Assembly: GCA_002633005.1 (NCBI GenBank)
Contig: NMRA01000422.1
Coordinates: 62,001-126,000, forward strand
DNA from: Phoronis australis
Lineage: Eukaryota > Animalia > Phoronida
Length of the DNA stretch: 64,000 nucleotides
Direction: 5' to 3'
The notes below the pieces were generated by a model that was not told where the DNA came from, ran no database searches, and saw only the letters and a list, made by a program, of their open reading frames with translations. This document shows positions 4,481 to 29,543 of this stretch, one piece after another. Numbering within the stretch: the stretch's first letter is position 1; each line of letters opens with the position of its first letter. The position numbers and the translations under genes were made by a program.

Positions 4481-5029
4481 GTTAGTTTCACTTTTTTAGG
4501 TTTTCCTTTGTATCTTGTGAGTTCCTTGACTAATTTTTCCTTGAATATTAGAGAATGCTTTGAGGTCACTAGGCTCTAGACCCTTTTTGGTGCCTGTCCT
4601 TGTAATAAAAATGTGTTTTTGATTGACATTAAGTTACCAGTGGTTTATTGTTCTAAATATAGCTTATCCCTCTTCTGTTGTCTCCCTTGACAAATCGTTT
4701 GTCATGTTCACTTGTTCCAACTGAAATTTGGAAATGGACAATCATTTTGGCTGCTGTCCAACATTGAAATAGGTTAGGTTTGCTAATGATTGTCTTCATG
4801 CAATTTGACTTGGTGCCAAGTCTTGTGACAAATGTAAATTTGTGACAAATATAAACAGTGTCAGTGTCTAGTCTCTTATATATAGGTGTAATACAATAAT
4901 CTGTTCACCTGACAGTAAAGTTATGTCTACAATCTGCATTGGTGATTCAATTAACATTTTAAATGTGAGTTAGTATTGTGTTTGCTTGAAGTATCAAGAT
5001 TTTTAAATCTCGTTTGTGGGTGTTTTTCT

Positions 5030-5980
5030 GTATTTCTGTTCAGGTATCTTCCAGTTTATTTGTTGAATCAATTGTGTCCAAAATAGTAGGTAAATTTCAT
5101 TCAAGTTTTCTACACAATTTTCTTTTTGCCTTGGATGGATGATCATGAAAGTCTGTATCATGTGGCGACACGACGGAATTTTTGGAAGGATCCGACTACC
5201 GCCATGTCGTTTCGTGACAGTTTTAGTTTTTTACATTTTTCTCTGTAGCTTCGAAGTTTTGTGATGATTTTTTGATGGAAGTTGGTAAATAGGCCCTGTT
5301 AAAGAGACGACACCTATCCCTTTTTTGGATGGATTTCTTGTAGGGTACATCACTTAATGGCCATTTTTATTACTTTTTAGGAAAATTTGGGTTACATGTG
5401 TACCTATTGGGAAGAGTACGGCTAATGAGGCTTTTCTGACAACTTCAATGACTGGCACCCCCCAGTGTTTTCCACTTTAAGCAGCTGTTTCCCCTAAACG
5501 TCAGTTGAGGGATCTTTGTGATGTATATTAAACCATTCTAAGAATTATTTTGAAAAATGAATCTTCTGAGAAGTACATGACTGGCGATTTATTGGACACG
5601 TCTGGTTGTTGTGGTGTCCTCTTGTGCCAACTTTGTTCTTTTGCCTGTGGGCTGTGGCTCAATATCTACCAAGTGCCTTGATGGATTTTTATGAAATTTG
5701 TATTTTTAGGTGTATACAACTTTAACTGGATTTAAGACCATTAGTAGCAATTTTGTTTGTCTGTGTGACTGTTTGCTTTGATATATTCCATGTTTGTTGA
5801 TGGATGCTCATGAAATCTGGCAAGCACCTGCCCTGTTTCAGATGGATTTGACCGAGACGTTGCACCCCATTGTGGCCTTTTTATTGTTCTTCTATCTGTT
5901 GTTGTTTACCCTGGCGTATCCTCCAAACTGCTTGAATAATCGGGATGAAAGGTTGGAGGTATGCTCCTATTGAGGAGTCA
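5030..5980 (+). mobile_element. Degenerate HINE (Helentron-derived) fragment; related fragment at about 910-1200
   Basis: Reverse-complement similarity to the internal units of the 35732-44308 copies (gatggatttt..atgaaatttg, gtggccatttt). Confidence 0.5.
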
Positions 5981-6092
5981 GCATTGCGGGCTTGATTTTC
6001 TCCCCAAGAGGCTATTTTCAGATTATTTCCCCAGCAGTGCTCCTTTTAGTGTAAATATTTAAAATAATGATCATCCCTTGTATGTGCCATGT

Positions 6093-6259
6093 GCAGGGAC
6101 GGATCTGAGTTAGGGGGAGGGGCAAGGCAGAGTATTTGTCAGGATTTTGCCCCTCGGACATTCGCACCCCTAAACTGCCAAATGGAATGTGGGAGAATTT
6201 TAGGGAGGGGGTCATAGCCCCCTTGCCTGTCCCTCCTCCCCCCTTAAAGCCCCCACTGA
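6093..6259 (-). mobile_element. Second, inverted copy of the short MITE
   Basis: Reverse-complement similarity to 1419-1563 (gccaaatggaatgtgggagaattttaggg). Confidence 0.55.
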
Positions 6260-9155
6260 TATATGCATATGGTGCACACAGTGGGCATAATTCAACACTT
6301 TGCTCTAGACTTGTTGAATTGCCCACCCTGCAAGTGTAGTGCATGTCCTTTTTGGATTAAATTCTTGTCAATAATTCTCATATTGGTATAAATGACATGT
6401 GTCAAATGATGATTTCTGGTGTTGATACTTGTGGACCATTCTCAGTCCACATTGGGTGTATTTTACACATTACTAGTTGACTATCAGGTCATATAAAATA
6501 TGTATGTATGCCATTATGTTTTGTGGTGTGTGCCTCTTAGTTTAACTTGGTCAGGTTTGAGATTTCAACACCTCGGTTTCAGTTTCAGTTTCAGTTTCAT
6601 TTGCAAAGGCCAGTGATGCACAATGGCCTATTGGCCATGTGGTACTTTCCATACACAACTCCATAAATTATTTGCAGAATACACAGCTCCATATTTTATT
6701 TGAAAAGGTCAGCATGAAGAATGGCTTGGTGGTCACAGGATACAAGTTCTTAGATTATTTTACTACTGTTTAAGAATATACATTTAAACTTACTGCTGCC
6801 ATATTTAAAGTTTGGGTTTTCCACATGCTCACGGGCTTCATAAACTTCAGGTTTCTGATTGGTCAAACTCCTATCACGTGATCAAAAGCTAGGTGGTGTG
6901 ACTATTTTAGAATTCAGTCTGGTGTTTTGATATTGTCGACTGGATTGTACTCTTCCATTGTTGATGAGGTTTTTCTGGTCAGGATTGTACGTTATTATTC
7001 TTAATTTATTTCGCTCAAAGTTGTCAAAATTATCATTTTTTCTGGTTTTCAAAAGTTGGTTATATTGTTGCAATTCATCAAAGTTTGAACCTCATGACAT
7101 CAACACAATACAAAAGATGCTAGTGATAGACTAAAATTTTATTTTTCTTTATTTTTCTTTATTTTTTGTTGATACATTTGACAAAATAATTTGTACTTGT
7201 CTGCCATGTTGTGTGCTACATTGGTGAAGACTCAGCCTTGTCCGTCAGTGCCCCAGTTTTTGTACTGGTGTTTGAATAGTTGTGTTCGAAAGAGAACAAC
7301 TTCTGTCATCCGCCATGTTTGTTCATCGCCAACGCTTTTGTAAGGCAACTACTGAAAGAATGTAATCATGAACCGTGGCTTAGCAAATTTTAGAAATGAC
7401 GCTTGTTAGGTTTAGGTGGAATATTACATCAAATTGTACTTGTGGAAACTAACAGTTCTGTGATTTCAGAAGATTTGACACGGTAAATTATGGTACAGTC
7501 TCTCCAATATAGCCCTAGAGTGAGATTTTATTTTTTCGCTTTTTCATAAAATATAATTTCCACAAAATAAATGCTTTTACATTCATAGATTTATACCATA
7601 GTTGGTTCTGAGAAATTGGTGAAATGTTGCTGTGAGTATTGAATGAATTTCTGCCTGTTTGAAATACAGTCAGAAATAACTGAATGGGTTGTGCTGCTAG
7701 TCGTGTGCACACTTGTGTAGTTGCTGCACATTTATTTCTTGACCGACATTTGATACTTGTAAAACATGACAGTAAAACAACAATTGACTGTACAAGTTAG
7801 TTCATAATTGTAAGTTAAGTAATTGAAAACTGCTTTCATTTCTCCATGGCAACATTTTTGCAGGGGTTTCATCTAGAAGCTAATGTTTCCTACAGCTCTT
7901 GAGAACTCCTCGGTATTCACGTTTTTCCCCAGAACGGATAAATTTTCAATCTTGCTGTTGGTACAGTTTTAAGCTGGCTTTTCGAAGGTTGCGTTTGGTG
8001 TTTTATTTAGTGTAATTCGCTTAAGTATTAAGAAGATAAAAAGATTAAGCATACTGATTCAAGATACAGCCAAAAGTGAGATCCCATAAAATAACCATGA
8101 CTTCCAAATTTCCTATGTTGTCCTAAGGCCAAACAAAAGTGCAAAACATGGCCGCTGTTCAAATGGGAATTTTTTTAATTGAAAACAAAGGTCCATGATG
8201 TATTGTAAGCACTTAGTTGGGATTTGTTGTAAGGTATGCTCTTGGTGACTTCTGTCTTCCCTAGACATAAGTGCTAACGTGGCTCTAATTGCTTTTCCCT
8301 TGTTGCTGAAATGGTATTCAGAAACATGAAGGCTTTGGATTTAAGCACTTGTATGTTTTCTTTTTGCATAACGCTAGGACCTCATTAAAAGCAAGACTTC
8401 GCGAGTTTACATGAGATATTGTCGTGTATTTTACCTGAGAACACGTGATTTTGGCTAGATTTCTCTCTAGTTGCGAGGCAGCTACTGAACTCTAACTCTA
8501 TCCATGTTTGCGTGTGTGTTACAGCTTGCCTTGGTGATTATTGGGTTGTCATATTCCCTATTTGGAAATAACTGTGATTAACACCTTGTTTGTCTAGCTG
8601 GCTACTTTCCAACTCATTGGGTCAACTTAAGAATCTGACCTGGTTGTGTGACAATTTAGGGTTAGTGCACTGACAGCAGACAGCATTGTTTGGCTAAGAC
8701 TGTGCCAGATAATTTGTCTGGCTGGCCATGTTCCAGTGTTTACTCCTGACCACCAGGAAGTGAGTCTGAAAAAGAATATGGGTGTAACATCTGGGTCGTT
8801 GCCCTTGGCCACCAGGTTTGGGCAAAATTGTCTTACATTGGCTGTCTTCCAATTTTAAGTCATGATAATATACAAATAAGCATGTGTTAGTACCGTCACA
8901 TTGCGTGATTGTGTTTGTTTGTTGTGATTATGATTGCCTGTCAGACTTGACTTTCCACCATTGTTGAAATAGTTTGAATTGCCAGAGAGAGCTCTGTCTC
9001 TGTTTTATTCAACGAGTGAACCAACCACGGAATGTGTTTGGGCTATTTCCAAATCGAGAAAAAATTCAAGCCTCCTTCATCGGAGCCTAAGTCCCATCCA
9101 TGCACAACCTACCCAGCTAAAACAACTTGCACTAGCGCAACTTACCCAACTCTTA

Positions 9156-9482
9156 AGTGGAGTGTCCACACACACATATCCGATAACTAGGGTAACACAC
9201 ATGTCAATAAACACCTAATGTGAATACGGTGCTCAAAAGACCCGTCTGGGTTTTAAAGGCAGCTTATAATTACTTCCACCCTACCCCACTTTTCGTCGTG
9301 ACCACACAGCGATTACAAGTTATCCTAGAACAAGTTACCCCACCTCTGTAAGGTAGAGTAAGTTGTCACAAGTGGGGTAAGTTTCGGTAGTTTAAATAGC
9401 ATTCAGACAGCAGTCAAACCTAGCGACGTCTCGTTCTAGGGGTTAAGTGTTCTAGTGTAAATCTGTGTGTGGACAGCACTTT
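9156..9482. mobile_element. Degenerate MITE with gtccacac...gtgtggac ends
   Basis: Imperfect terminal inverted repeats only. Confidence 0.35.
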
Positions 9483-11279
9483 AGTTTGAGCTTGGCTAGA
9501 GCTTTGCAGTCCGGGTGGGGGAGCAACATGACAGGAGGCCACAGTGGCTTAGGTGTGTCATGGACAGAGCGTCATTAAAGCTACGCTATCTGTTTTGATT
9601 TACGTCACTTAGGAATTGCACGCCTTGTACCTTACTTGGTATAGAATGATCCCTGGGCTTGTTACACCAAACTCACCAGAAATCTGGTCTGAAGAAACGA
9701 TGAACTGTTGCTTCTTTTTAAGTCCATAAATCACCGTTATTGTTATTTATTAACTATTTGAGACCAATTAATGTCTAAGGCAAAGAAAATACAGCTTAAA
9801 GCTGCACCTTGGGATGACCTGAGCGCTGTGTAACCTCAGTGCATAAAATAGATTTAATTGATTTATTTATAGTTTTTTCATGACAGATCTTAAAAGCTGC
9901 TTGGTCAGCTAACCCTGGGCTGTTAAATGTTAAGTTTAAATACGTTTGTAAACTTATTTCAAAAAGAAACTAAAAAGTTATATTTGTGAATGAACGTGTA
10001 TATAATGTTCCAAATTGTCAACTAAGTCTAAATGAATACCAATCAATGGAAAATTTTGAGGTCACTGTTTGGAGAGCTGGAAAACTAAAAATTGAAATTC
10101 TGTTTGGTGAACGAATCTCCAGCTAAAGACACAGCCTGTCAAAACTAAAGCCACATTTTGTCTTCCAACTGGACCCTGTACTGATGTGAACACTACGAAA
10201 AAAGTTCTAAAGTTGCATCAAGCTTTTGAGATTTTATCTTGAACATGATTTATAGCAAAAGAGGTGTTGTTTAATTGGTACCATTATTTTGCTGTGAATG
10301 TTCTTTTGTTTATGTTCTATTTTACTGACAGGATGTTGTCACCTGATTCAGTTAATTGCGGATTGGTATAAAGTCAAAAATCCACAAGCTTCACTCTTTC
10401 AGAAGATATCCATTTTTACTGTTTCGACTGGTACATTTTTTAGAGGTTTTGCTTTTAATGGCGTAGTCCTGCCGGTGAGGTCTCACATAACCCTTAAGTA
10501 ACTGGGCCTAAACTTTTCCATAATCCGCATTTCTGATATCATTCAACAATGTGCTCTGATTTTTGCTAAGGGTACATTGTTGGCACCTTGCCTTTTTGTA
10601 CACATGCCCTTCTTAACTGAAGTCACATGTTCATCTAGTACAACATCATTTGCTCGATCAATGAGACCTGGAATTCCATTCATGGATTTATTTGTTGGCA
10701 GCTTGCCATGAACATTCAATATGTCTCGTGATTATTGTCTGGCCTATGTGCAGTTATAAGTTATTGTATTCGCTTCCTGTCTTTAGTCTGAGATTGGTTA
10801 CAGAGCTAAACGCTCCGCTCCTCGTGTACCTTAGCCTGTAAGTTATTTTTATGTCTTCAATTTCATTTACAATGATTACGCTTGTAAGTGGTGATTTTGG
10901 ATCCATTTTCTGTTGGTATTGTTTCATTTATTAGTTGGATTTTTCATTGTTTGAAATTTATCAGCTCGTTCTCAAAAAAAACCTAAGGAACCAATGTGAT
11001 ATGCTTCCTAGTCAAAACCCAAAGTATTTTGTTCAGATTTGGCATTGCCCAAATCAAAATCTTCAATTCCCATGTATGTTTTTTTTATTAATTGTGAATT
11101 ATAATTATTTAGTAATAAAATTTAGTTGTGTGCATCCAACATGTTGATTTACAGTGAATTCATGAACATTTTGTGAAAGACTGTCAAGTTTTGTCATGCC
11201 TGTCTGATCAATTTCCTGACTTGATTGTACTGGAACAGGTGTGTAATTTAAAGTGTCGAAGCTTGAACAAATGGACACT

Positions 11280-11855
11280 TGAAGAACGTTCATCGTCTGG
11301 TGTTTCATAGCAAAATTTAGCAAAAAAAGTAAGGTCCGTCATTGGCAAAATCACAGTAGTAACAACATGAACAAATTAGGATAAAAGTATCAATTAAGAT
11401 AAAATTTATTAATACTGTTACAGTTTTCTAAATTATCATTTCGTTTTCATTTTATGCAACTTCTGTATTTTTTGATGAAAATTGTAAAAATCGACTTTTG
11501 ATTGACTCTCATACAAAAAAGGAACATTTTCAAAACAATCTCCTTAGTGTTTTGTAGACTAGTGTATGTAACGGGATAGTATCTGAAAGTTTCTTATGAA
11601 TCTGATCACCCATCTCTGAGATACGTACAATGTTTCCTTTGAATCTGATCACCCATCTCTGAGATACGCACAATGTTTCCTTTGAATCTGATCACCCATT
11701 TCTGAGATACGCACAATGTTTCCTTTGAATCTGATCACCCATCTCTGAGATACGTACAATGTTTCCTATGAATCTGATCACCCGTCTCTGAGATACGTAC
11801 AATGTTTTGCAGTTGGCCAAGTTTGGACATTTTTCGGTCCTACATGTGGTAATTT
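11280..11855. repeat. Dispersed repeat; inverted homolog at about 50610-51050
   Basis: Shared reverse-complement blocks (ttggccaa, tctgagata, tgaaagttt, ttatgcaact). Confidence 0.6.
11597..11808. repeat. 43-bp minisatellite, about 5 copies
   Basis: Unit tgaatctgatcacccatctctgagatacgtacaatgtttcctt starting at 11597, 11640, 11683, 11726, 11769. Confidence 0.95.
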
Positions 11856-13932
11856 TCCACTTTATTTCCTTACAGAATAATTTTGAAAATTCTCCTTTTT
11901 CCATTTTTCAAGGGCTGATTATTCCACTGCAATTAATGCTAGTAATAATTAAACTAAATTTTTTTAATTTTTATTTTTGTGAAGAGGTTTGACAAAATAC
12001 AATCACGTGTGCTAATTAAGTGAGGATTACCTTACCGATAATACGTTGTCTTATCAGAATATGCCATGTTATTATTTGAAAGCTAATGATAACCAATTTG
12101 GTTCAGGTTTCGTATTTAGTTTCGATCGTGATGTTGGTTGTGTACATATGTTTTTTCATATGAAAGTTCGTCATGAATTGTATGATCTTGAATTCGATAT
12201 TTTCTTGTTTAAAACAGTATCACCATGGTTGCACCTTGGGGATGTTAAGGTCAAAATACATAGATGTGACTACTGCATAAACTTTCCTGATAACTTCTTC
12301 ACATTGAGCTATAGTTCTCACCTTAAATCAGGATATCACGTGTTTTGGCTAATGCTTCCTGATTGGTCAATTGTGATGTCATCAGGACGTCGTATACTCT
12401 GATTTTCGTCTTGTATTTCGTTCAAGTGAAACAGTCGACATTTTCTTTCTATAGCGTGTGATTGTAACTCTCCTTGTGTGTTATTGTAAAGTCCGAGGTC
12501 ACTGGATCATTTTTGTTTGCTCACTGCACAAAGGTTTTTTATCAATAGTTCAAGGATATTCACGGTGTGCAAGAAGGAATTTTGGTGTCCGCCATTTTGT
12601 TTTATTGATGGTTGTGACGCAGTGGCTGTTAATGGTCAGATCTGTCAAGAAAAGTAGTTTGGAGTTCTTGAAAGCTGATTGTAAGTTGCCTGAAAGTTGT
12701 GTGCACTCATTTTTTACTTAGTGGTCATTGATAAATGTGATTTGTGTGTCACATAGGTTGCATTTCATGAGAAATGTTTTGATAAGCTATCTTTTGTGAG
12801 AAGGTAAGGTGCTCAAAATGGCTGGAGTGTTCACTCAGGCAGATTTGTTGTTGCGGTACCCTTTGCAGTGTTGTGAGGAAGTAAAAACAAGAGAATGAAA
12901 GTTAGGAATGAGTTTTAATGCCTCAAGGCAACACAAAATGTTGAATCAAGTTTATATTTATAATGGCCATTGTATACCAGTGGTAAGAATTTGTAAATTG
13001 TTTACAAAGTTAAAGTGGACATTGCAAATAAAACTCAGGTTACAAGTTTAACCAAAGGCACGTTGACTTTTCTAAGTTTAAGTGGCCTTGTGTTCTTGTG
13101 TGAAAATTTGTCAATATTCAAATTGAGCACAGTGCTGTTGACCAATGACAATGTGCTTCATTCCCAAGACTGGTTTATACATCCTCACTTATTCAAGGAC
13201 CGTTGTGATGTATTGAGGCTGCCATGTGGATTCAAAAGAGACAAAAAGTCTCCACCCGCAATTGAACAATAGAATCAGCCCTGTTTATACTCATTTTTGA
13301 ACAGAAATTGTACTGAAAGTATGTTTTAGTTTGTGTTCAAAAGCCTGTTACGGAGTCCTTATTTTCCCTAGGTTGCTATGGGAGTTGTTTTTTTGGAGTC
13401 TGCACGTTTCGACCATAAAACTCCAGTACGATCAGTGTTTCGTAAACACTGTGAGTGCCGTGCACCTTTTACAGGTACTGATTATCTGTTATCCATTTGT
13501 TTTGCAATTTGATTGACATACCTTAAAGTAGTTACTGAAGCATTATTGTTGTTTTTTAAGTATTATTGTATGTTTACTTAGAAAATTGATTGTTTGTGTG
13601 CAGGCCACATAGATGGATTCTGTTGGTCTAAACAGGAGAACCCTAATATATAGTCATGAGGCTCTTCCTGAAAATGATTACAGAAGTCTGTAGGCATGTA
13701 AGCCACATTCTTCCATCATATGAGCTTGGCATTTGATCCTCCAAGTTACCGTCCACAGATAGCGCCCACAGATAGCGCCCACCATTAGTTCTGCTTGTCC
13801 GGTCATCTCGCATAACGTTCTACCAAGAAGGATCAGTGATTCTCCAGACACTGTATTGTCATCTCACTTTCAATTTGACAATCTGTATGGTGCTCATGTG
13901 TACAACTCATTTCAGAATGCTGTGTGCCTAGA

Positions 13933-14028
13933 ATGGCCGTAATGGAAGAACATGGCCACTCAAGCGATATAAACCTGGACTCCACCAGTTCGTCTATCTC
14001 AGACACCAATGTACACGTGAACAGAAAG
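13933..14028 (+). CDS. MAP3K14: NIK-like coding exon 1 (MAVMEEHGHSSD...VNRK)
   Basis: ATG in strong context (agaATGG), in-frame TGA upstream at 13876-13878, donor AAG|gtgagt. Confidence 0.75.
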
Positions 14029-17000
14029 GTGAGTACTGGCGAATACTTGACATTCAACTCTTTAGTGTTGTATGAGCACTAACTTAGGCTTGTTTCGCTT
14101 GACCTTGTTTTTAATTCTGTTGTGCAAGAGAGGCACATTTGTCAAGGATGAAATGCCGCTTGCTTCAATTACAGACATTTTGAAATATTGGAAGTGTTTG
14201 TGACTCATTTCCCACAGCACAGCAGTGACGATTGGATAGCATCGTGGTGGTAGATAATTTATATAAAATACAATAAGAAATCTCATTGAATATTTTTGAA
14301 AAAATGTATGGCGCTGTTCACCAATTACCCTATTGTCACCTTGTGGCAAGCCGTGTTTCATTACGGTGCCGCTGTATCAGAATATTGCTATTCTCTGGTG
14401 CTTATGCGGGGGGAGAGGGTTTTGGGGTGGGTTACCATGGATGACATGCAATATTCAACATGCAGTGTCCAGACAAGCAATTGTTCCTGTGAAAATTGCC
14501 ACAAGAATAAGATGATGTAAGCGAATGTTTACGGAGATTAAATCGTCATCACTCGACATTGCTGTGACTTTGCTCGATGCTTTGGCGGTAGTTCAGTTTG
14601 CATTGGTAATTTTTGCAAGCTGGCTCATCTCATGAGTTGGTGCAAAACATAAAAATGTCCAATCCTGTGCATACCGGAGCTCCTTTGCAGATGACAAAGT
14701 TCTTGTCACGTGCTTTATTTCATGTTTTAGTTCCTATCTGATTGCGACGGTCTCTCTGGTTGCTACGTGAAATACAAGGAGGTTATCAAAGATCGACCAA
14801 TGCCAACCAAAGGTAAATAATTCTTTTTGTTTGGCATGATTAAAATGTGAATAGAAATGAACAGTATCTGTTACTACGGTGTTCAACTTGATGCTTGCAT
14901 CTTCGACATCTGTGCATCATCAAAACTATTGTGTTGGAACTAGTGCGTAAATTTTGAAACTCAATGTATGAAAGGAGTGTGGTCTAGGGTGCGCGAGATT
15001 TCACCCTCTTGTGTAATAGAATCTCCTGTCCTGCTATCATTTGAGCCAAATTTTTCTTTGAAACTACAATTTTGATGACTTTTAGAAGCTATGCTTGTGT
15101 GTTCTTGGTGAATTTCCTCTTGACCAATAGAAATTCAGAAAATTAAAATCGACTATAGATTATTCATTAACTTTTTGTGTCACAGTTTAATTTATGTGCT
15201 TTTAATTGAAAATATAATGAAAGGAGTCTGAGAATTGTTTCGGTTTTGTAGAGTCGGCATCTTCAAAGACATTTGTCAGCTTGTCTGACTCAAAGACAGA
15301 AGAAAAGAAGTTTGAGCTGCCATCAGATGGCAACGATAAGCCAGCACAGGTGAGAGACAGAGAGTTACTATGTCACTGAGTGCCAGATTGTCTGTTACTT
15401 TGAAAGTTACGAATAAAGGAATCTCTGCATTGAAAAATTATGACTTAGGGACATTTTGCAAGTTTGGACGGTTGGCTTGCATTGAAATTGTCTTCTCTCA
15501 AAGTAAAAGCAAACCAAATATAGGCGAAGTGACCTGTCGCTCTCTTGACTCTAGCTACTTACAAAGTGACGAAATTATGTTCCTGTTGACAGTTTTAGGT
15601 AGTGACATAACTGGCAATCTTTCATATTAGTGTTTATAAGCTATTCTTCTCAGTTTCCAGCAGTCCTATATCATTGAAAGTAAGGAATCAAGTGTACTGT
15701 AGTTTAAGACTTAAATTACAGGATTACATGTACAAGAAATTTTCTTTAACTCATATGGTGGTCAAGTGCAAGCAGAGTTCATCGTCAGAGTACCCATAAC
15801 TGCCTGTCATGATCGGTCATTACCTGGTGAAGCGTTATTTCGTCCGTATGCTTTTGATCTATGTTACATCTAACAATTAATCACATTTTCATTTGAACTT
15901 AAAAAGCGTAACTATCCAAGTCACCATCAGATGGCAGGAACCTGTTAACAAATCTGTTCCAGGGCAAATGCAACACCGCCAGTGACAGAGACGGTAATCC
16001 CAAACACAGTTCCTATGCCAGGAATGGGAAAAGTCCCTGTGGAGCTGGACCAGCTGGTGGTGGGGGTGATGGTGGTGCTGGTGGTGATGGTGACGGAAAT
16101 GGTGAGGAACAATGGCAGAAGGAAGTGCCTGCTGATGGTGTCGTTAAACCAAAGGTTAGAAAGAAGACTGAAAAAGTTGGAGGTGTAAGTATCTCAATCT
16201 GCGTTTTGTTATGGAAAATTATTGATATCTTGTGTTTTTTTTTGGACAGTTTCTACATAGTCGTTGTGTCACTTAATACATTTAATTACAATCGATTGAT
16301 AATAAAGTGTTGTGAGTGCACACAACTTAATGTCGAAACTCAGTTAGTTTGGTTCAGTGCCTGGTTATGTGGTAAACCCAAATAGGGAATCGGCTAAGTT
16401 CCCTAAACATATTTGTTTTATTCTTCAAACTCAGATACAGTTTTAATAATTACATCTTTTCATAATGCAACTAAAAACTGAACTCTTAATTCAGTCCAAA
16501 TTATTAGGGGCGTTGCATGAAAAGATCTGTACTTATTTTCAATAATATTGAGAATTCAGTGTAGAGTTCGCTCTCGATTTGTATCAAAGCCAAAAATTGA
16601 CTTAGTAAGACAGTCAGCGTCTTCACGAGCTCGCTAATGCACAGTAGATTTAGAAAACTTTATTAAATCCCTATTTGGGACTGTTTCATGCAACTGGGCA
16701 CAGTAGTCCATAATGACAGACCATTGCAAAGACAAAGAAAAACTGTTGAAGTGATGTTGCGTTAGTGCACTGTTTTCCCAGCTTCCCTCGTTGCAGCATG
16801 CTTTTCGTCGTTGAAATTGTACCATGATACCATTCCACTGTGGCTGGTTTACAAGGAATGGCCGAGTTGTTGAACAGAAATGAATCCAATGCTGTGCACG
16901 AGTGTTCTTGTTTATTTTTAGGATGTTTCTGAGGATCATGAAGATGTTGACGTCGACACAGCTGCTGACTTTTTGGGCCGGGTGAGTGTGTAGTCTGTTT

Positions 17001-20000
17001 GAAGTCCCCATTTTGGGTCACTTTTGCTATTATTTTTATTATTTAAACTAGGCAAAGTTGTGAATGTGATAATGGAATGAAAAGAGTAATTGGTGATGAA
17101 AGATTGCTGCCTTGCTTGTACTTTTGTACATTAATTTTGTTGATATGGTTTCGTAAAAGATTTCATTCTATCTTAAGTTAGTTGTTGGTATTGCTATAAA
17201 GATGTGTCCTGTTGGTTGTCACAGGGAGGTTATCAAGTCAGTCCATTTCTTTCAACAATAGTGAGCTGGGTTTCATACTTATGTCGGGTTGAGATGTAGG
17301 ATTTTTGAATAATGTTAGGTAGGGCTTCTGGTGGAAAGTAAGGTCAGCCGTGAGCATTCACTAACACATCCCTCCTGCCATCTTATGAATAATTAAAGTA
17401 TCATCTCTGTGCTAAATGCTAAATAGTCAGGCGCGATTACCATGGGCAAACTTGGTAGGTGTGAAAGTTTTGTCTGACAGTGGAGCAGATACGCAATCTG
17501 CTTTCTCATCAGGCAGCATGAAGTTTCATGGTTTACCAAACTTTCGTGTTCTAAATGAGCTTGTTTTTTTAATGTTTGTTGTGAATCGTTTATTTCAGTT
17601 GACGGAGAATGACCGCGACATCAGCTGCCTGAAAAAGCTCGAGTTATGCGTGCGTAATATCATCCAGGACAAACAGTCAGCACTTTCCTGTTTCCTTTGT
17701 ATGCTCTTACTCAACCTACTGGAGCACTGGTGTAAATGCCAGGGTTGTGGGGAGTGTTCCAAAATTTCCATCGTCATCAGTTACCATGTCCAGAACTGCG
17801 TGTTAGCCAATGGATTCACATGTGTCTTTTGTCAACGGTTGAATATGCGCTGGGTGTCTACACCTGGGACCGAGTTTATGACTGCGCTAGCCAAGTTTCT
17901 CGGGTTAGCCTTGCCAGACCAGTACATGGAACTGGTACAAGAGTTCAGTCAACTATCCTTGACGGAGAGCACGGAATCAAGAAGGCTGTCCAGTGACAGG
18001 CCAAGGTCACTTGCTTCAATACCAGAAGGGGACAGGGCTTCGTTTACCCAAGAGCCTACGCTACAGCAGGCCGTGTCCGAATCCATGAGTAGTAGGCGGA
18101 GGCGCTCCACCGCACAACGCCCTCAATCCTTGACCACCACTGAAAGAGTATGGAGGGGCGCAATATGTGTTGACTATGGCAATGTTGCACACTTGAATAG
18201 AGTGGCTTGTCATTGGGCCTGTCTTAGGACTATGGCGATGAATGGGACACGATTGGAAGAGTGCCACAATGGAATCGTACTGATGTCACACAAAGAGGTC
18301 AGTTCCATTTTGTGCACCTGATGCTCTTTATTTGTAGGCTCTGTTGATCTTCTGCTTAGCCTCGGGGAGAAATTCTTGCTGGTGGCTCTGGGACTTTTTC
18401 ATGAAAAGAGATATTTTTAAGACTTTGGGCCAAAAATTTTTCTAAGTTAAGATGGAATATCGGGCTAGGTTAGGCCTGAAGACAAAACAAAAAACGTTCC
18501 ACAAACACGAAGTCTGTTTTTTTTTGCCTTTGATTTTGAAGTTGACAGAAATCATGTCAGGTTTTGACAAAGGCGATCCTGCCACCTCCTTGTCTGTTAA
18601 AGGATGGGTTAAAAGACTTGTTGTCCATCACTTAACAGACATTGAGGTGGTAGGTTCACTTTGTCCACCGCATGAAAACGTGCTGTGCATCGTATCTCGC
18701 CTAGAACACAGCCAGAAGCTTCACCTGTCCTGCCAGTAGAACCATTCAACCATTTTTAAAAGGGAGCGTGACACTCCAGAGAGTTTTAGGATGTTTTTTT
18801 TTTTTGGTACGACACAGTCCAACTGAACTGGTTCAGTTGGTTCGACTATGATCTTTCCTGGATGGGTGAAGAGTTATGTTTCAAGAAGTGGGTCTTGTAT
18901 TCTTCCTTGCCATGAATGGATGCCATTTCTGTTACCAACTGATTCAGAATTTTTGAGAGTCACCGTTGGTTTAAATGTTTCAGTCGGTAACGAAAATGGA
19001 GACCAGTTATAGTATTTTAGAGTAAATGGTCTGACTCAGTTTTTGTTTTTAGTCATCTTTATGGTGTAAAATACGACAGTTCAACATTTTATTAATAATT
19101 TATAAACTTTCCATTTTGCAGCAGACGTATGTTAGTTTTGTATTTATTGAGTTAATTCAAGAGGAAAATTTAGAAGTTTCTTCTCTCAGCTATTCATTTG
19201 AAACTGCTGCTTTCCTGTTGATTTTATCACCATTCAGATATTGGCTGTTTTTTCCATTTGCATTTATTACTAATTGTGGAATGCTGTTTTAGAACATCAT
19301 TCTGGGTGAATCAGCTGGTGGTCTGTCAGCACAGTACCAGTGTGGCACCAACTACAGGAAGCTGCGCGTACTTGGCAATGGTACCTCTGGAGTCTGTTAT
19401 CTCTGCAAGGACTTGTCGTCAGGGTTCTCGTTCTGCCTGAAAGAGGTAATACGACTTTTTATGCTAAAGGTTTCCGACTTCCTGTTCTCAGCTTAAAGGG
19501 TGAGCCCTGGGCCCGGTCTCCAATCTCCGTACTCAGACTCGAATCATGCTCAAACTCACACTTCATACTCAACTCGAGTACAGACTCAGCTTTGGTGTAT
19601 TCAATGTCATACTCGAAAAATCTGTACTCGAAATTTCGAGCACGTACTCAGTTTTCGAGTGTACTCGAACTGAAGTGTATCTCATCTATATTTCGAGTAC
19701 GATTTTGAGTAAAAATTNTACCTCTACAATTCCTGGCAACAGGCGCATTGTAATCCCTTGTCGGCGAGTCATAACAAGCGTCGAAAGCAGTTGTGGGAAA
19801 AGTCGTGTGAGAAGTTTGTGTTGCCCTTATTTCGGTATGTGTGCCTACGTTTTGTAGGGTTTCCAAAAGACGAGGTACATTTATCATCATAACTTAGTCA
19901 TCTATAATTCCTCAATACACAAACGGAATTCCAGATTTTGTTTGCCGATTTCTAAGTAGACGTCTCGTCCCGTTCACTGCCACTGGTGAACTCTGAATGC

Positions 20001-23000
20001 CTGCACAAGTATTGTTTTTTAACTCACGTGCCAAATGTCAACTCACTTGATACATCCCAGTAAAATACAAAGATACAGTATCAAAGTTTGACATCAGCTT
20101 AGGCCTACACAGCAATGGGTTTTATGTCAAGACTAAATTAGCAACAGAGATGTGATGTGATAAGCTGTTACATATTTCTTAAGACATTTTCGGGACTGGG
20201 TGAGGAACTCAAGAAGTAAAGCTTGATAATTGCCAAGTGTATCAAAGAAATGGCATAAGAATATTTATTGAAACTAAAAAATCAATAACAGTTACAGAAC
20301 ACTCCAAATTCCACGTTATAGACATACTCTTGTAGTTGTAGCGACAGCAGACGATAATGTAGGCCTAGTTCTTGGGGTGGTCTATTCCAATAGGGAGCGA
20401 TGAATCAGCGCGGCTTTGCGTGATTTTGCATTTCACATCATAAAGAGTTCCATAGCAACTCGGAGTATGAGTGTCAGATTTGAGTACGTTTGGAGTCTAC
20501 TCGAAATCCGACATTAGATACGCTTTTTTGAGTACGACTCCAGTGAGCACGATTTTGAGTATGAAATCTCGAGTATGAGTATGAGTCTGAGTACGGAGAT
20601 TGGAGACCGGGCCCTGAATTTGTTCAAGTTTTTCTGGTAGTTTTAATGTCCATATCTTGTAAATAAGTATGCTACTGCCAGACAAGACTTTGCGTTATTT
20701 TGTTTTGACAAGTGATGATATGTGCTGTTCATTGCTGTTGATTGTAACAAGGGCAAAAAGGATGGTTTATGCCCAAACCATGACTCGTGAGATCTTGGGC
20801 CTGTTTCATCGAAAGTGACTTTTAAGTCTTAAAAGACTTATAACATAAAAATTTGGTGTTATGCTCCCAAGAAATTATGAGCAAACAAAACTTTAGAAAT
20901 AATTAACATAATTTCTGTATTTTTAACTAGCAGTTTTGTGTGTACATTCTCAGAGTCTTTACCCTTTTGTTCAAGAGAGATTTAAATATTTTTCTAAGCA
21001 GTTGTGTCGAGCTTATGACCTAATTTTTTACTTAAGTCCATTTTCATGCAACAAACCCCCTGCTCATCATTGCTTAGTAAAATTGCATCCACCTACACCA
21101 ATCTCGGCCTATGTCTAGAATGTTTTTTCAAAAAATTCAAACGCATACCAGCAAGGTTTTTAAGGCCGTGGTATGCCAAGTCAGCCACGCACCACCAGGT
21201 GTCTCTCACGCGTTTGTGACACCTGCTTAGCTAGCTTTAATGAACATTACTCTCTCTAGGTGCCTCTCTCCAAGTTCAAGAAGGACGAGTTGATGGTATG
21301 GAGCCGCTTGACTCATGAGGGTGTTGTAAAGTTATTTGGTGCCGTGATGCACAACGACTCCATCCACATCATTATGGAGTACGTGGACGGGGGTACCCTG
21401 TTCCAACATGTGCAAGGTCAGCGGAAACTGAACGTCCGACAGAGCCTCATCTACCTAAAGAAGATTCTGGAGGTGTTGGACTATCTTATGGAAATGAATG
21501 TGGTGCACAGAGACCTGAAAGGTAACCACACACTCTGATAAAAGTTATAATTAGTAGTAACAATAGGTAGTAATGGAAGTGTTACAGGGATTCAACCACT
21601 ATTTCTTGACATGGAATCAGACTGGATTCCTAGGACAGTGATCCTATTAGATGATGACTGATGTAGTACAGGTGATAATTCAAGCCAAAGCCCACATTAA
21701 ATTTGTTACACGAAGGGCAAGGTTCGGTTACCCCATTCCCTGTCAACACAATATCCAGCTGGCTGGGCTGCCGACAGACCCATAGTTTTATGACATAACG
21801 AGGTGTAATTAAGTATTGCGTTAGGTGACCCAGCATCCCAAGCAGCAGGACTTAATTCAGCGGGCTATTGTGATCACATCTACAATAAACTCCAATGGTT
21901 GGACAATCACCATCTGACATTCAATCTTTACAAGTTCCTCATATGTGTGCAAATCTCAGTCTGGTACTGCTAAAAAAGTTTTTAGAAGTCAAGTGAGCGG
22001 GACAAAGTTTTCTCAGTGGTAGGCAAATCTTCCTGTCACGAGTCCCCAGTCGCACCTGCCAATCGCGGCAGAGATTTACCAGTCATCAGTGGCATCTTTG
22101 CTAACCGTGTCGGAATTGAACCCTGATTCTGAAAAATAATCCAATCCCAAGGAAACCAAAACTGCAATGTTGGAGATATATTTGAACTTAGACACTTTCA
22201 AAAATATTTCAAAATAATGCTTGTTGGTTACGATGCCTTTCCTGTTGACCAAGGGTTTTAAGTAAACCTAACCGTTTGGAGTTATGATAGCAAGACAGAC
22301 AGACAGAGTGTAGTTCACTGGATTTACTTGAAATTTTCAATGACTGTCACTAATAATGTATGCTCAAACCAAAATTATGAACTGTTGCTTCTAAGGGGAA
22401 CAACACAAGACGATGTATTCACTAAAATGTGGGCGTCATTTTTTTGTTATTGCAGCCGAGAATATAATGTTGTCTGGTGGCAACCTGCGACTAGCAGTAA
22501 CGGACTTTGGCACTGCGTCTTTTCTACAAGATGACCAACTGCTTAAAAAGCGAGTTGGCACGCCAACGCACCATCCTCCGGAGGTCTATAAGTCCGATGG
22601 TCATGGTTTTCCTGTGGACATTTGGGCGGCCACTTGCATCTTTGTGCACATGCTGACTGGCTCCCCACCATGGCTATGGCGTTATGAAGGCATTGTCGGC
22701 ACATTGGCATTTAAGGTATGAAGACTTAGTATTAATGAACAGCAAATTTTATAACCTGCAAAGCATTTTTTAAATTTGTGATGATCTTAAATGTGTTGTA
22801 TGTGCTTGAAAGCAATGTATACCGTATTGCCACGCCATTAAGCCCATGTGCGCATGTGAAAAAACTGCCCGAAGAAGGCATTATTTCGGATATAGGCTTA
22901 AAGGCCCAGCAATAAGGCATTCTTTGGGAAGAGTTAATGTTTATTTAGGATCAATGTTTTGTAAACATTATGGTGACAGTTAGAAAGTGGCTTTCTAGGC

Positions 23001-26000
23001 GTATAGTTGCTTAGGAGTGTTTGGACTGCAAACTGTTGTCAAAAAATAGGAATCTAATAGCGTGTTACTAAATCAATGTTGCAGTCTGCTTAGCTTTATT
23101 TTGATAGTGTACACATACATCTTGGTGAAGAGATCAGCTTCAGAGGTAGACCCGAAATTCTTTTCTAAACTATTATAATAATACTACTAATATTTCAAGA
23201 AAATGATGACTAAAACAGTTTTGGGATTGCGTTGTTGAAAATAGAGGGTTATTTAAGATTAGTCTCTTTGAGTGTAGTAGTGAACGCATTGATCTCACGG
23301 CAATGTAATTTCAGATATGCACGGAGTCGCCACCATTGGAGGATGTACCAAATGGCCTTCCCGACCATGTGTACGACCTTATCCTGAAGGGTTGGACCGT
23401 CGAAAGCTCATGCAGGCCTCTTGCATCGACACTGCTTCAACATCCTGCTTTCTCACTTCTTCATGGTGAGTTCTTTGATCGTAACTTTGAAGTTGTTACA
23501 CATATTACTGCCGCTACGGGATAAATGTTGGCTTAAACCTGTTGACTGTGAATGCATTTTGTGCAGTAAATTCTTCCTTGATTATAATCACTACGCATTT
23601 GCATTGCTGGTTTGCGTAAGTTCATACGGCAAATTTGTCTTCTTGTGCTGTTACAGATGCTGGTTTCCCATCTATGAGAGCAGAGAGCATCCTGTATTCC
23701 GGTTTGACCGGGATGGGAAACGTATCGTCAGAGGAGGAGACGGATGAAGAGGATGATGATGATGATGAAATTCATGACCGAGCATTACCTCCCCTTGACC
23801 TCTTGCAGATGGTCACCAGTCATACAGTTTCACAACAGTCTGGGAGTGGTGTTCATGGTCACTTCTTGCCGACAATGGTAGAGAACATGACGGATAACGT
23901 TGACAGCACTGATGATGGCCCTACTGATATGCATCATGTTGGCAGAATTTACAGACCAGTGGAGCGCTACACATGCTCCAGTCGAGGGTTCACATATCCG
24001 CCCGTTCTGCCGTCGGCTATGAATGGCGTAGAGAAATGTCCACCCATGGCACCTGCGGTGACTGAGAGTAAATCACTCCCTGCTGTCACTACAAAATTCA
24101 ACTTGGCGCCAAAGTGTTTCTCTGAGCCCGCGCGTCTGCCTGATTCAGGCATTGGCAGTGGAGCACCAGCCAGTTCCACGTTACTACAGCATAACAGGAA
24201 GTCTTCTGGGTCTATCGAGGCTTTGCCATCATCTAGACTGAATTCCATTGAAGTGAATGCAGACGGCTTCAAGGATCTCAATTTAGAGCATAGGTCTACT
24301 CCTGTGTCTACTACTCCTATTCACACTCCGTTTTCCACTCCTACAAGTGTGAAATATGGAAGCATGCCACCATCGCAGCAGCCGCAGTCAATGAGGCGAG
24401 ACAAGTCCATGTCAGAAAAAGCTGAAGATGATCTTCAACAATATCAAAACGGTGAGTAGCCTAGACAATGTTCAGGATTTAGTGATAAAGGTTAATTTGG
24501 CTGTGCTGCGTTTTATATTCACTATGTTTTGCTGTGTTTTATGGTGTCATCATAATTGGATGAACGAGCAGCCACAATTTTACTCTGAAGTATTTCTTGA
24601 GTCTGGGTAAAAGGACATTATTGTCTTTTGTCTGAAAAGCACAATTTTGGAATTATTTTTTAACGATAAAGTTCCTGCAAAATTCTATTATTGTGTGATT
24701 CGAGTCTGCTCCCTTTGGATTGAAGGTGTATGTGTGTGTGTGGAAAAAATAAGTCAACCACGAAATGTCTCGTGTTAAGTGCTTGTCAATATGGCCTTGG
24801 CTGTGAGTATGTTTGGTATTTGGATCTTAAAAATGTGAGGCAAGATTTTTTTTTTTGAAAAATAAATTAGCTGAAATTGACACTTACATAGATTATTGTC
24901 AGCCTCAATCTCCTAGAAATGTGACTGTTATAATGCTCTGCTGACCGGTACCAAGAGAATGCAATATCCCTACTGGCAACAATGGTAACTTTGGTTACTC
25001 AAAATTGAGTCATTTCTGCATAGGAAAACATGCATTGGGTTATTGTTTTGTAAATCAACTACGTGAGGCAGTTGACGGGTGGGTGCCATTCCGACCATAA
25101 TTTAAAATTTCCAAAAGTAGGGGACGTGCATTTTCGGCGCATTGTTGGTGTTTGCATTTGTCTGACATGCTAAAATTTTTAGTTGTAAAGAACACTGTTG
25201 TATGTAAAGCAGTTATAGGTAACTCTGTTCATTATCACGCGTATTTCTTTTTGTTGTCACTGTGAGGCAGCAGTGTAGTAAATGCTCAGCCATTTTGCAC
25301 ATAATGTAACAGCTAATGGAAATTTTGTTTTGGGATTTTTTCTGAAAAAAAAACATTTCAAGGTTTACGTAAACTTAATTTCACCAAGGGAGCATGGTTT
25401 GTGTTGTACATCTTTCATCAAATAAAGAAACTTTGCGATCCTCTTAATATTAAGAAACAAATGGCCCTTGAAAATAGGAAAAATTGCAACTCTCTGCAGT
25501 TATTTTTGTTTGATATTAAAGAGAGATTACAATACCATCTTTTTCAGTCAGGTGTCAATAGGGGTCAATAGTGCCATTTACCTACTCGCCTTTACTCTAC
25601 GTTGATTTCGACACTAACAGTTTCCTTGTGTCCAAAATATTTGCTGTGCTTGACTCACTGTTGAAGCTGTAGCTTACTTTAAGAATTACGTTTCAACCTG
25701 TATCAGTAGTTCCTGGTGGTTGCACTGAATCTTCCCCTCAATTTCATTCTTGCAGAGTTATTCCATGATCACCTGTCGAATGCCGACTTTGAGATACAAC
25801 AGTTCGAACAATCGATTGAGGATTTGCCTGTGGACGCTTCTTCATTTGGTCCCCCCTCCATGACAACACTGTACCTCCCCGCAGACAAGTCACCCAATCA
25901 GGTATGGGTTGTTAATTGATTATTTCCTTACTTTGTCGTTTTGTACATAATTAATATGTGGATGTACTGTCAGTAAGTCTGTTGTTTTTGTTGAATGCTA

Positions 26001-28138
26001 TATTCACTTAGTTGTCATGTAAAGATGACTTGTTTGGAAGCGCAATATAACCGCGACCCTTGGTCCACTTAGATATACCAAAACAAAAATCGATCCAGAT
26101 GGTCAACAATTACAATTTATTTTGGTTCAACTAAAAGAGTCTGTTTTACTTTAAAGATAACGAATAATACTGGATAGAGTATATCAACTTACTATTCATC
26201 CTTCATTCTCACATCGTCACTAACGTCTGATTACTGTTCTATCATAGGCTCAGTGTGAAGTTGATGGCTTGACTGATGAGGTTCTGTCACAGTTCAGGGA
26301 ATGGGTGTCTAATCCATCTGCAGGTAGGGATCATAATCTATGAAACAACAGTCTTGTCTTTAAAGTATGTTAGTTAGTCTCTTGGGCAAGTTCTCAACAA
26401 AGCATCTTAAACACCTCCTGGTGACGTTTCTGAGAATTAAATGGTAATTGAATCATAATTAATTGAAGTTCTTGTGTCGTTACCTCAGGTTACTGTTAGT
26501 TTTCTTTCAAAAGCATTGGAAATGACCGATTCAACTGAATCATTAAACTAGATCCAGCAAATATTTTCCAACAGTTACTACAGATTGTTTCAAGCACCCT
26601 TTGGTGGGAAGTTGGTTTAGTATGTAACTCTGTTCTATGGAACTAATGATCTCTCCCAGTGTCAACACAGTGTGTCGTAAACCAACATGGGTGCATATGA
26701 ATGCTCTGCTCATATTTAAGATAAAAGCCCTATTTGTGCCCTTGGCTGCCTCTCTATCTATTGCCTATAAAACAAGTTTATTTCTTTTTCCAGGTAATGG
26801 CTCGGTCAGTTTGCCGAAGGTGAAATTCAAGACGACCAATGGTAAAACCCTTGCTAAGGCAGGTATTTCAAGAATCAGCACAACATGGAAAGAGATCATT
26901 GAACTCGCTAGTGTAGCGGTAAGTCATATAGCCTGCTAGTGGCGTTTGAGACAATACCAAATAGTAATAACCTAGCAGAGACAATAACACTTTCACCTTC
27001 ACCTACACGCAAACACAACATTGAAAATCATCAGCCCTGTCAAATTATTGTAAGTGTTGTAGACATGTTGATAACAATTTGTTGTGTGTTTTTATCGTCT
27101 TGTATTCATTGTTAGTAATATGAGCCTTGCTGGTAGTGTTAAATAAACTGATTGATTGATTGAAAGTCTATGACAATTCCTAAACTGAAAACTCTTTTGA
27201 CTTAATAGCGATTGGAGCTAATCCACTCGGCAACGCTCGAGTCATCACCAGACAGGTCGTGTAAGGTCTTCCCCTAATGTTTCCACACAAGCCATATTGA
27301 TTGCACTGGTGGCAAATTCATATTGTTTATGGGCCATGTCTTCTGAGATTTTGCTGGAGAATTCAAATTTAAATCTAGCAGAAGTTGCAACTTATCATTT
27401 CTGTACAAATTTCAATGCTTCAGAAATGAATTTTTTACAATAAAGTCTAGGCACATGGCTATAGAAACTCAAGAGTAGGTAGAAGCAGTGTTTCAGTAGT
27501 TGGGGAAAGGTGTGTTTGGGAGTCGACATTCGGCATGATGCTGTCTTCACCTTCACAACACAAGACTGGGAAAAGCTGAAATGCGAGCAAAATTAAATAA
27601 ACCGATGCGGCTACGTGCATTGGGGTGGTTTTCAAATTTGCCATATGCTTGGCGAATCAAGTATATCACGAGGGCTTAGGCTTAACCACAACATGCAAAG
27701 GACAGATGCGGTAGCCCTAAATGGTTTGCCACAGTGACTGCCTTTTTGTTCAGAGTGGATGATTCCCCCCAAAAACCTGCCTAATGTACTAATGATCAAC
27801 TTAAGACAGTCTGAGATAGAGTGTAAGGTGAAAGTAATTCAGATAGGAATCAAGAATGGGATGGTGTAAGTTTTAATACTAACTATTGAAATGTAATTGT
27901 TTAATTTCAGATTCACAACGTAATAGGCGACTTTGTGTGCACTCTAGATGGAGTTAAGGTCATTCTTGGTGACTGTGTTGGCATGCAATCGGTGACGGTT
28001 ATCTGCACACCAAAGCCACCTGACAACAACAGTTGGTATGGGACATCAGGCAGAGTCCGCGATGAGAATGAGCCTGGACATTTTGAGCCTAATTGGGATA
28101 TTTTACTGAGCCCGTCATTGGCACACGAAGGGCAATAA
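13933..28138 (+). CDS. MAP3K14: NF-kB-inducing kinase (NIK/MAP3K14)-like Ser/Thr kinase, 14 coding exons, ~1130 aa
   Basis: Manual join with GT-AG sites and matching phases: 13933-14028, 14731-14812, 15252-15349, 15963-16184, 17599-18297, 19293-19445, 21260-21521, 22456-22715, 23315-23465, 23657-24451, 25756-25901, 26248-26323, 26794-26918, 27911-28138 (3393 nt). Kinase motifs GNGTSG, FCLK, DELM, HRDLKAEN, DFG, GTPTHHPPE, DIW. NIK-like features recalled from human NIK: N-terminal MAVME, DDLQQYQNELFHDHLS (cf. QELQQLEIELFLNSLS) and C-terminal KVKFKTTNG...TLDG...ICT...W..RV. Some segments (TGSPPW, PPLED) also resemble MAP3K8/COT. Confidence 0.85.
14731..14812 (+). CDS. MAP3K14: NIK-like exon 2 (FLSDCDG...PTK)
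   Basis: ttttag acceptor, open frame, G|gtaaat donor, phase 0 to 1. Confidence 0.65.
15252..15349 (+). CDS. MAP3K14: NIK-like exon 3 (ESASSKTF...KPAQ)
   Basis: ttgtag acceptor, CAG|gtgaga donor, phase 1 to 0. Confidence 0.65.
15963..16184 (+). CDS. MAP3K14: NIK-like exon 4, Gly-rich plus basic stretch (KPKVRKKTEK)
   Basis: ttccag acceptor, 74 open codons, GGT|gtaagt donor. Confidence 0.7.
16358..16700. mobile_element. Harbinger-like MITE; related copy at 58094-58486
   Basis: TSD CAG; ends tgcctggtt..cccaaataggga / tccctatttgggactgtttcatgcaactgggca. Confidence 0.6.
17599..18297 (+). CDS. MAP3K14: NIK-like exon 5, Cys/His (TAZ-like) cluster and pre-kinase segment
   Basis: Inside ORF 17416-18321; tttcag acceptor, GAG|gtcagt donor. 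Confidence 0.8.
19293..19445 (+). CDS. MAP3K14: NIK-like exon 6, kinase subdomains I-II (LGNGTSGVCYLCKD...FCLKE)
   Basis: Gly-rich loop and catalytic Lys in a frame not shown in the ORF track; ttttag acceptor, gtaata donor. Confidence 0.85.
19510..20613. mobile_element. Non-autonomous PIF/Harbinger-like DNA transposon, ~1.1 kb
   Basis: TIR GGCCCGGTCTCCAATCTCCGTACTCAGACTC at both ends, TSD CTG, many subterminal TACTC/GAGTA motifs. Confidence 0.85.
21260..21521 (+). CDS. MAP3K14: NIK-like exon 7, kinase subdomains III-VIb (HRDLK)
   Basis: ORF 21260-21538; ctctag acceptor, G|gtaacc donor. Confidence 0.95.
22456..22715 (+). CDS. MAP3K14: NIK-like exon 8, kinase subdomains VIb-X (DFG, PPE, DIW)
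   Basis: ORF 22413-22721; ttgcag acceptor, AAG|gtatga donor. Confidence 0.95.
23315..23465 (+). CDS. MAP3K14: NIK-like exon 9, kinase subdomains X-XI (ICTESPPLEDVP...RPLASTLLQHPAF)
   Basis: tttcag acceptor, G|gtgagt donor. Confidence 0.92.
23657..24451 (+). CDS. MAP3K14: NIK-like exon 10, acidic and Ser/Pro-rich low-complexity region
   Basis: ORF 23635-24459; ttacag acceptor, G|gtgagt donor. Confidence 0.88.
25756..25901 (+). CDS. MAP3K14: NIK-like exon 11 (ELFHDHLS...)
   Basis: ttgcag acceptor, CAG|gtatgg donor; resembles the ELFLNSLS segment of NIK. Confidence 0.85.
26248..26323 (+). CDS. MAP3K14: NIK-like exon 12 (AQCEVDG...NPSA)
   Basis: catag acceptor, G|gtaggg donor; bridges phase 0 to 1. 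Confidence 0.75.
26794..26918 (+). CDS. MAP3K14: NIK-like exon 13, C-terminal domain part 1
   Basis: ttccag acceptor, GCG|gtaagt donor; KVKFKTTNGKTL resembles NIK KVQIQSLNGEHL. Confidence 0.82.
27911..28138 (+). CDS. MAP3K14: NIK-like exon 14, C-terminal domain part 2 to stop
   Basis: tttcag acceptor, open to TAA at 28136-28138. Confidence 0.82.
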   Translation: MHNVIGDFVCTLDGVKVILGDCVGMQSVTVICTPKPPDNNSWYGTSGRVRDENEPGHFEPNWDILLSPSLAHEGQ

Positions 28139-29365: not shown

Positions 29366-29543
29366 GAAACCTGTATTACAGTACCTTTGAAACACCCTGT
29401 ATTACAGTACCTTTGAAACACCCTGTATTACAGTACCTTTGAAACACCCTGTATTACAGTACCTTTGAAACACCCTGTATTACAGTACCTTTGGAACACC
29501 CTGTATTACAGTACCTTTGAAACACCCTGTATTACAATACCTT
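29366..29543. repeat. 26-bp minisatellite, about 7 copies
   Basis: Unit gaaacaccctgtattacagtaccttt. Confidence 0.95.

Follow-up and report, generated by a model that had tools for sequence, protein, structure and literature searches.

A candidate IAP-binding motif at the start of a NIK-like kinase gene of Phoronis australis

Introduction

Human NIK begins with the residues MAVME. A kinase gene on the plus strand of the window, which is the whole 64,000-nucleotide stretch of Phoronis australis DNA analysed here, encodes the same five residues in a short first coding exon that is spliced to the exons of the kinase. The kinase itself appears NIK-like, and its MAVME is probably an inherited degron for IAP binding, homologous to the one in human NIK, making it likely that a NIK degradation tag for IAPs is older than the vertebrates. 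The original prediction had proposed that IAP-controlled NIK turnover may predate the split between vertebrates and invertebrates, and it has gained ground on several counts: the kinase is NIK-like, the exon is spliced, one transcript form (form A) is predicted to start at MAVME, AVME fits the loose consensus of IAP-binding motifs (IBMs), and the match to human NIK appears to be beyond chance. Ahead of the kinase domain, likeness to NIK is undetectable apart from the opening five residues, and this indicates which control element of the kinase is old.

Gene model and transcript support

The model of the kinase gene has 15 exons from 13933 to 28138 on the plus strand, with GT-AG introns and an open frame of 1150 aa. 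Its exons and the support for each are as follows.

13916..14028, plus strand: first coding exon, with 17 bases ahead of the ATG and 32 codons from it; acceptor and donor in RNA reads
14731..14812, plus strand: coding exon 2; RNA junctions
15252..15349, plus strand: coding exon 3; RNA junctions
15963..16184, plus strand: coding exon 4, glycine-rich; RNA junctions
16922..16981, plus strand: coding exon 5; RNA junctions
17599..18297, plus strand: coding exon 6, a helical Cys/His-rich domain and then a highly polymorphic linker; RNA junctions
19293..19445, plus strand: coding exon 7, from the glycine loop to the catalytic Lys469; RNA junctions and sequence
21260..21521, plus strand: coding exon 8, from helix C to the catalytic loop, with a gapless NIK match; Pfam and alignment
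22456..22715, plus strand: coding exon 9, DFG and activation segment; Pfam and alignment
23315..23465, plus strand: coding exon 10, predicted end of the kinase domain; model
23657..24451, plus strand: coding exon 11, predicted acidic, Ser/Pro-rich linker; model
25756-25901, 26248-26323, 26794-26918 and 27911-28138, plus strand: four predicted C-terminal exons to the stop; GT-AG ends and open frame

RNA evidence comes from three raw-read runs sharing one species label, of each of which about 18-19% was mapped. The junction from 14028 to 14731, which had been put forward for an RNA check, is carried by 14, 5 and 25 reads in these runs, so that the first exon is seen spliced into the kinase transcript in 3/3 of them; it was not seen in the single contig run. 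The RNA mapping covered 3720-19700. Within it, reads span all 6 model junctions, of which one appeared in just two of the three raw-read runs; the 8 later junctions rest on GT-AG ends and the open frame. At the model junctions seen, every first mate maps to the minus strand, as expected of plus-strand RNA in the usual stranded library. One RNA run shows the letters of the window plus alternative letters at many sites, suggesting that it comes from the same, highly polymorphic species.

The kinase domain is central, with about 440 aa before it and 460 aa after it (the C-terminal exons being predicted); the stretch ahead of the kinase is thus longer than the ~380 aa first estimated. The four C-terminal exons (25756..28138) are the least certain part of the predicted model, and a small candidate exon near 27209-27260 was omitted since it disrupted the frame. 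At 19333 of the window, just before the kinase domain, exon 7 of one contig has an insertion of 15 bases that keeps the frame. The intron between exons 7 and 8 contains an inverted-repeat element (19500-19720 and 20460-20620), with abundant reads from both strands at its left arm.

Elsewhere in the window, a multi-exon progranulin-like gene, recognised from translations, occupies about 39500-60400 on the minus strand, with many granulin repeats, several of them near-identical, and its 3' end faces that of the kinase gene. An open reading frame at 3644-3788 on the minus strand, which we take to be the start of a THAP-like zinc-finger protein, runs into the assembly gap at 2812-3643. Short tandem repeats are visible by eye at 11595-11810 and 29365-29540, with repeat lengths close to 47 and 25 bases, respectively.

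Kinase family

Pfam Pkinase scored above its cut-off in two of the six exons scanned, and the kinase hallmarks are present, namely the glycine loop, K469, E480, HRDLK..N and DFG. Excerpts of PMC3431628 describe human NIK as a central kinase flanked by long regions and give its catalytic residues as K429, E440, D515, N520 and D534. The corresponding residues here are K469, E480, D555, N560 and D574, and all five are offset by 40 from those of human NIK, including the short distance from Lys to Glu. In comparisons with solved structures, exon 8 is identical to human NIK at 33 of 85 residues with no gap, and exon 9 to mouse NIK at 33 of 78 residues with one gap of six residues. Summed over exons 8 and 9, human NIK scores 83.8 bits, mouse NIK 79.4 and TPL2 76.0. 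NIK ranks near the top for each of these exons, below JAK1 and Hsl1 for exon 8 and level with PLKs for exon 9, where the NIK match begins at residue 1 and the TPL2 match at residue 11. The lengths of the two exons, 262 and 260 bases, presumably fit the TPL2 gene equally well as the NIK gene. As queries, exon 7, exon 10 and those at the C-terminus were too short to allow a family to be named. On exon scores, catalytic spacing and layout rather than a tree, the kinase is classed as NIK-like, and it could possibly be a NIK/TPL2 pro-orthologue. Its modest identity to mammalian NIK, the compact introns and the high polymorphism all fit an invertebrate source.

NIK has an N-terminal extension that holds helix C active, and this extension was sought with the 66 aa preceding exon 7, a short query that gave no match in solved structures. 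The original prediction had recognised no likeness to vertebrate NIK in the residues that follow MAVME; this holds for these last 66 aa of the exon at 17599-18297, the sole part that could be compared with solved NIK constructs (0 matches).

A helical domain is predicted at positions 17599-17940 of the window, and it contains two clusters of His and Cys (His229-Cys239 and His249-Cys264). We take the His/Cys spacing of this domain (aa 187-300) to resemble that of TAZ zinc fingers; for exon 6, Pfam returned 0 families, no TAZ was among 10 weak sequence matches, and a fold search with a model of pLDDT 49 gave generic helical matches only and no TAZ. Exon 6 has at least 23 polymorphic sites in raw reads, counting the best-supported ones listed. 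Among the sites listed, 7 in the Cys/His domain are silent and 3 change an amino acid, whereas in the pre-kinase linker none is silent and 13 change an amino acid (Fisher P 0.0005, with the boundary chosen post hoc), a pattern that may mark diversifying selection on the regulatory region of an immune kinase.

Start of the reading frame and upstream exons

The features around the start of the reading frame are the following.

13933..13947, plus strand: M-A-V-M-E codons, with the candidate IAP-binding motif AVME once Met is removed; sequence
13917..13931, plus strand: out-of-frame upstream ORF of four codons; sequence
12415..12680, plus strand: upstream exon A, whose start is an estimate based on read depth; 5 X4 junction reads, in-frame TAA at the junction
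13372..13474, plus strand: upstream exon B, whose start is a tentative call from depth plus an acceptor-like site; 1, 3 and 2 junction reads

The start ATG at 13933 has A at -3 and G at +4, so the strong Kozak context claimed for MAVME is confirmed by the sequence of 13933-13947. The degenerate 15-base pattern for MAVME has a single match in the window and had none in 100 shuffles. Met4 is the second in-frame ATG (13942) and also lies in a good start context, with G at -3 and G at +4. The four-codon upstream ORF begins at ATG 13917 and ends one base 5' of ATG 13933.

MAVME had further been described as the earliest in-frame start to follow a stop. For the genomic sequence this is literally correct, the nearest in-frame stop on the 5' side being TGA 13876, but that stop lies inside the intron preceding the acceptor at 13916 used in the RNA, and therefore TGA 13876 alone does not prove the start. 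RNA reads show three alternative upstream exons (A, B and C) spliced to acceptor 13916. Form A joins donor 12680 to 13916 in 5 junction reads of run X4. Splicing here produces a TAA in frame, which leaves ATG 13933 as the earliest start codon downstream in that frame. Form A is therefore predicted to have MAVME as its N-terminus, and the description is correct for this transcript form. Exon A also carries an in-frame upstream ORF from 12608, which ends at the junction stop. Form B joins donor 13474 to 13916, with 1, 3 and 2 junction reads in the runs, and the in-frame ATG 13378 of exon B would place 44 aa before MAVME if the exon starts at about 13372. The original claim that MAVME is the N-terminus thus stands for form A and would fail for form B, where an in-frame ATG 44 codons upstream would bury the motif; accordingly, Ala directly follows the initiator Met in form A and not in form B. 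Translation of form B and initiation at Met4 are both predicted to yield a kinase without the exposed motif, which would be more stable.

Form C appears as a loose read end with 10 X4 reads, among the loose ends listed, and is the commonest form among the 17 X4 reads entering the exon at 13916 (A 5, B 2, C 10). Ten visible codons of exon C are open in frame, for which the chance is 0.51 if the exon is non-coding, and the 5 codons from acceptor 13916 to ATG 13933 are also open in frame. Exon C is absent from the window at up to 3 mismatches, the best match having 10 of 30 bases mismatched, and no copy was found in the metagenome contigs searched. It may lie upstream of the window or inside the gap at 2812-3643. 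Plus-strand RNA coverage is also present at 5100-5850 and 8517-9049, together with a raw-read junction from 5246 to 5672, and may stem from additional exons at the 5' end, from an insertion polymorphism or from reads derived from repeats.

The match to human NIK and to IAP-binding motifs

AVME is expected after a given Met by chance at 6e-6 (from protein composition) to 3e-5 (with Ala at position 2 set at 0.25) and over all 11 pre-kinase Met at 3e-4, where all three figures assume that human NIK starts with MAVME; on these figures, the exact match to the four residues of human NIK would be far beyond chance. The loose IBM pattern given in the available part of PMC7810383 fits 4285 of 64,103 human entries there, or about 5-7% of human proteins. 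AVME fits this pattern, which is matched at 2 of the 29 Met residues within the first 960 aa. There is no NIK entry in 10 supplementary files of PMC7810383. According to excerpts of PMC3760131 on the P3/P4 preferences of XIAP BIR2 and BIR3, Met and Glu are not preferred at positions 3 and 4. AVME is thus not a preferred BIR peptide and is the same as the unusual version in NIK, which favours descent over convergence, and from this we infer that shared descent is the better account of MAVME.

The 113-base exon has 0 differing sites listed at a depth of 10-30, whereas exon 6 has at least 23 among its 699 bases (P about 0.02). For the five MAVME codons taken by themselves, the absence of differences is unremarkable (P 0.6 for 15 bases). 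The comparison shows that constraint acts on the 113-base exon, and does not show it for the five codons specifically.

The case for an inherited degron comes from one species. The orthologue searches used single-exon queries, so that their blanks are weak evidence: exon 6 gave 2 matches against 1.84 billion representatives, both to repeat proteins judged spurious; word-based searches found an orthologue in 0/2071 with exon 6 and in 0/260 with exon 9 at an over-strict cut-off of 1e-8, and with exon 8 gave 4/55 matches, none of them named or built like NIK; and the metagenome contigs yielded no relative. In the available parts of the literature, a NIK-like protein was not identifiable in any basal organism (PMC5700166), neither NIK nor TPL2 was identified in Aplysia by domain annotation (PMC9334734), and basal NF-kB proteins are p100-like (PMC9621439, 10.1101/691097). 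Our literature search found no report of an IBM in an invertebrate NIK.

Alternative explanations

The position of MAVME in the protein depends on where translation begins. If translation of form C began further upstream, MAVME would be internal and the motif would be exposed in a minor form or never. The share of form C (10 of 17 X4 junction reads), its 10 visible open codons, the 5 open codons between acceptor and ATG and the in-frame ATG of form B all fit such a start. However, ten open codons are expected by chance about half the time, and three exons entering one acceptor, one of them making a stop, would be typical of variable 5' leaders. An exact match to a motif that functions only at an N-terminus is also hard to account for at an internal position, and a start further upstream appears rather improbable. 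Even when MAVME is the N-terminus, it may have been inherited and yet kept for tandem starts, for acetylation or for a non-IAP partner, with IAP binding gained or strengthened later in vertebrates. We consider this unlikely, since cIAP1 binding is the sole function reported for the NIK N-terminus in the available parts of two reviews (PMC7290580, PMC8869227), and a constraint from start codons or acetylation would probably not require Val3 and Glu5 to be kept. Such an origin would nevertheless agree with the good start context of Met4 itself, with the expectation that NatA acetylates most IBM-like ends, with a fourth-position Glu that XIAP BIR2 and BIR3 do not prefer, and with the lack, in the first 440 aa, of a recognisable TRAF-type motif to hold the ligase complex.

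Coincidence or convergence would mean that an IBM-like start arose independently, or that the start of a NIK/TPL2 pro-orthologue or paralogue resembles that of NIK by chance. This seems very improbable: all four residues match, at about 3e-5 per start, on the sole kinase family known for the motif, and convergence would more likely have produced a preferred BIR peptide. Its plausibility comes from the frequency of IBM-like starts (4285/64,103 human entries), from the rest of the N-terminal region, which is without a detectable homologue in the searches, and from the choice of NIK over TPL2, which rests on exon scores and not on a tree.

A possible mechanism

The available parts of PMC7290580 and PMC8869227 place the IBM of mammalian NIK directly behind the initiator Met, where it binds cIAP1 BIR2, and together with PMC6027159 describe the motif as stabilising a complex for which TRAF2 and TRAF3 are required. 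If MAVME is an inherited IAP-binding degron, Met1 would be removed from the form A product, and the free Ala-Val-Met-Glu end would dock into the BIR groove of an IAP of this animal. The IAP would then ubiquitylate the kinase, and the resulting turnover would keep the kinase scarce. When the IAP is lost or blocked, the kinase would accumulate and signal, probably to IKK. Excerpts of PMC7810383 describe proteins starting with Ala as NatA substrates and acetylation as blocking IAP binding. NatA acetylation is expected to mask such ends, which counts against the degron reading.

The TRAF3-binding site of human NIK is N-terminal, at about residues 30-120. The first 440 aa here contain no fitting match to a TRAF-type motif, judged by TRAF-binding patterns from which an invertebrate site may differ. 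Without a TRAF-type site, the motif may be an older degron. A more tentative proposal, on which we place limited confidence, is that the IBM is the ancestral NIK degron and older than the TRAF3-TRAF2 route, with exon A exposing it, exon B burying it, and the upstream ORF and Met4 tuning the supply of degron-free kinase. If the motif binds an IAP, direct capture by IAPs would be the ancient means of keeping NIK levels down, and in evolutionary terms the picture drawn from mammals, in which the motif is an accessory, would be turned around. A practical handle also follows: short first coding exons, which gene models may miss, can be checked for a MAV start.

Comparison with known systems

TPL2/COT (MAP3K8) is the second-best family across the two kinase exons, with 76.0 bits. 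To our knowledge, TPL2 is far shorter and is without a long C-terminal region, and we know of no N-terminal IBM in it. Human and mouse NIK are, like the kinase described here, central Ser/Thr kinases with long flanks; the spacing of the five catalytic residues is identical, identity across the two kinase exons is 39-42%, and the N-terminal MAVME is shared with human NIK. Unlike NIK, which has 947 aa, the product here has 1150 aa, is without a recognisable TRAF3 site (by TRAF-type patterns, in the first 440 aa) and has a Cys/His-rich helical domain preceding the kinase. Its activation segment is 6 residues shorter than that of mouse NIK, and its gene has three alternative upstream exons, one of which (B) would bury the motif.

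Among IAP-binding motifs, which include Smac AVPI, those of Chk1 and NIK and the cryptic IBMs masked by NatA, AVME differs in carrying, at positions 3 and 4, a Met and a Glu where XIAP BIR2 and BIR3 prefer other residues, and in that its exposure here depends on the transcript form. It agrees with these motifs in fitting the loose four-residue pattern, and with the IBM proteins NIK and Chk1 in having Ala at position 2, right after the initiator Met.
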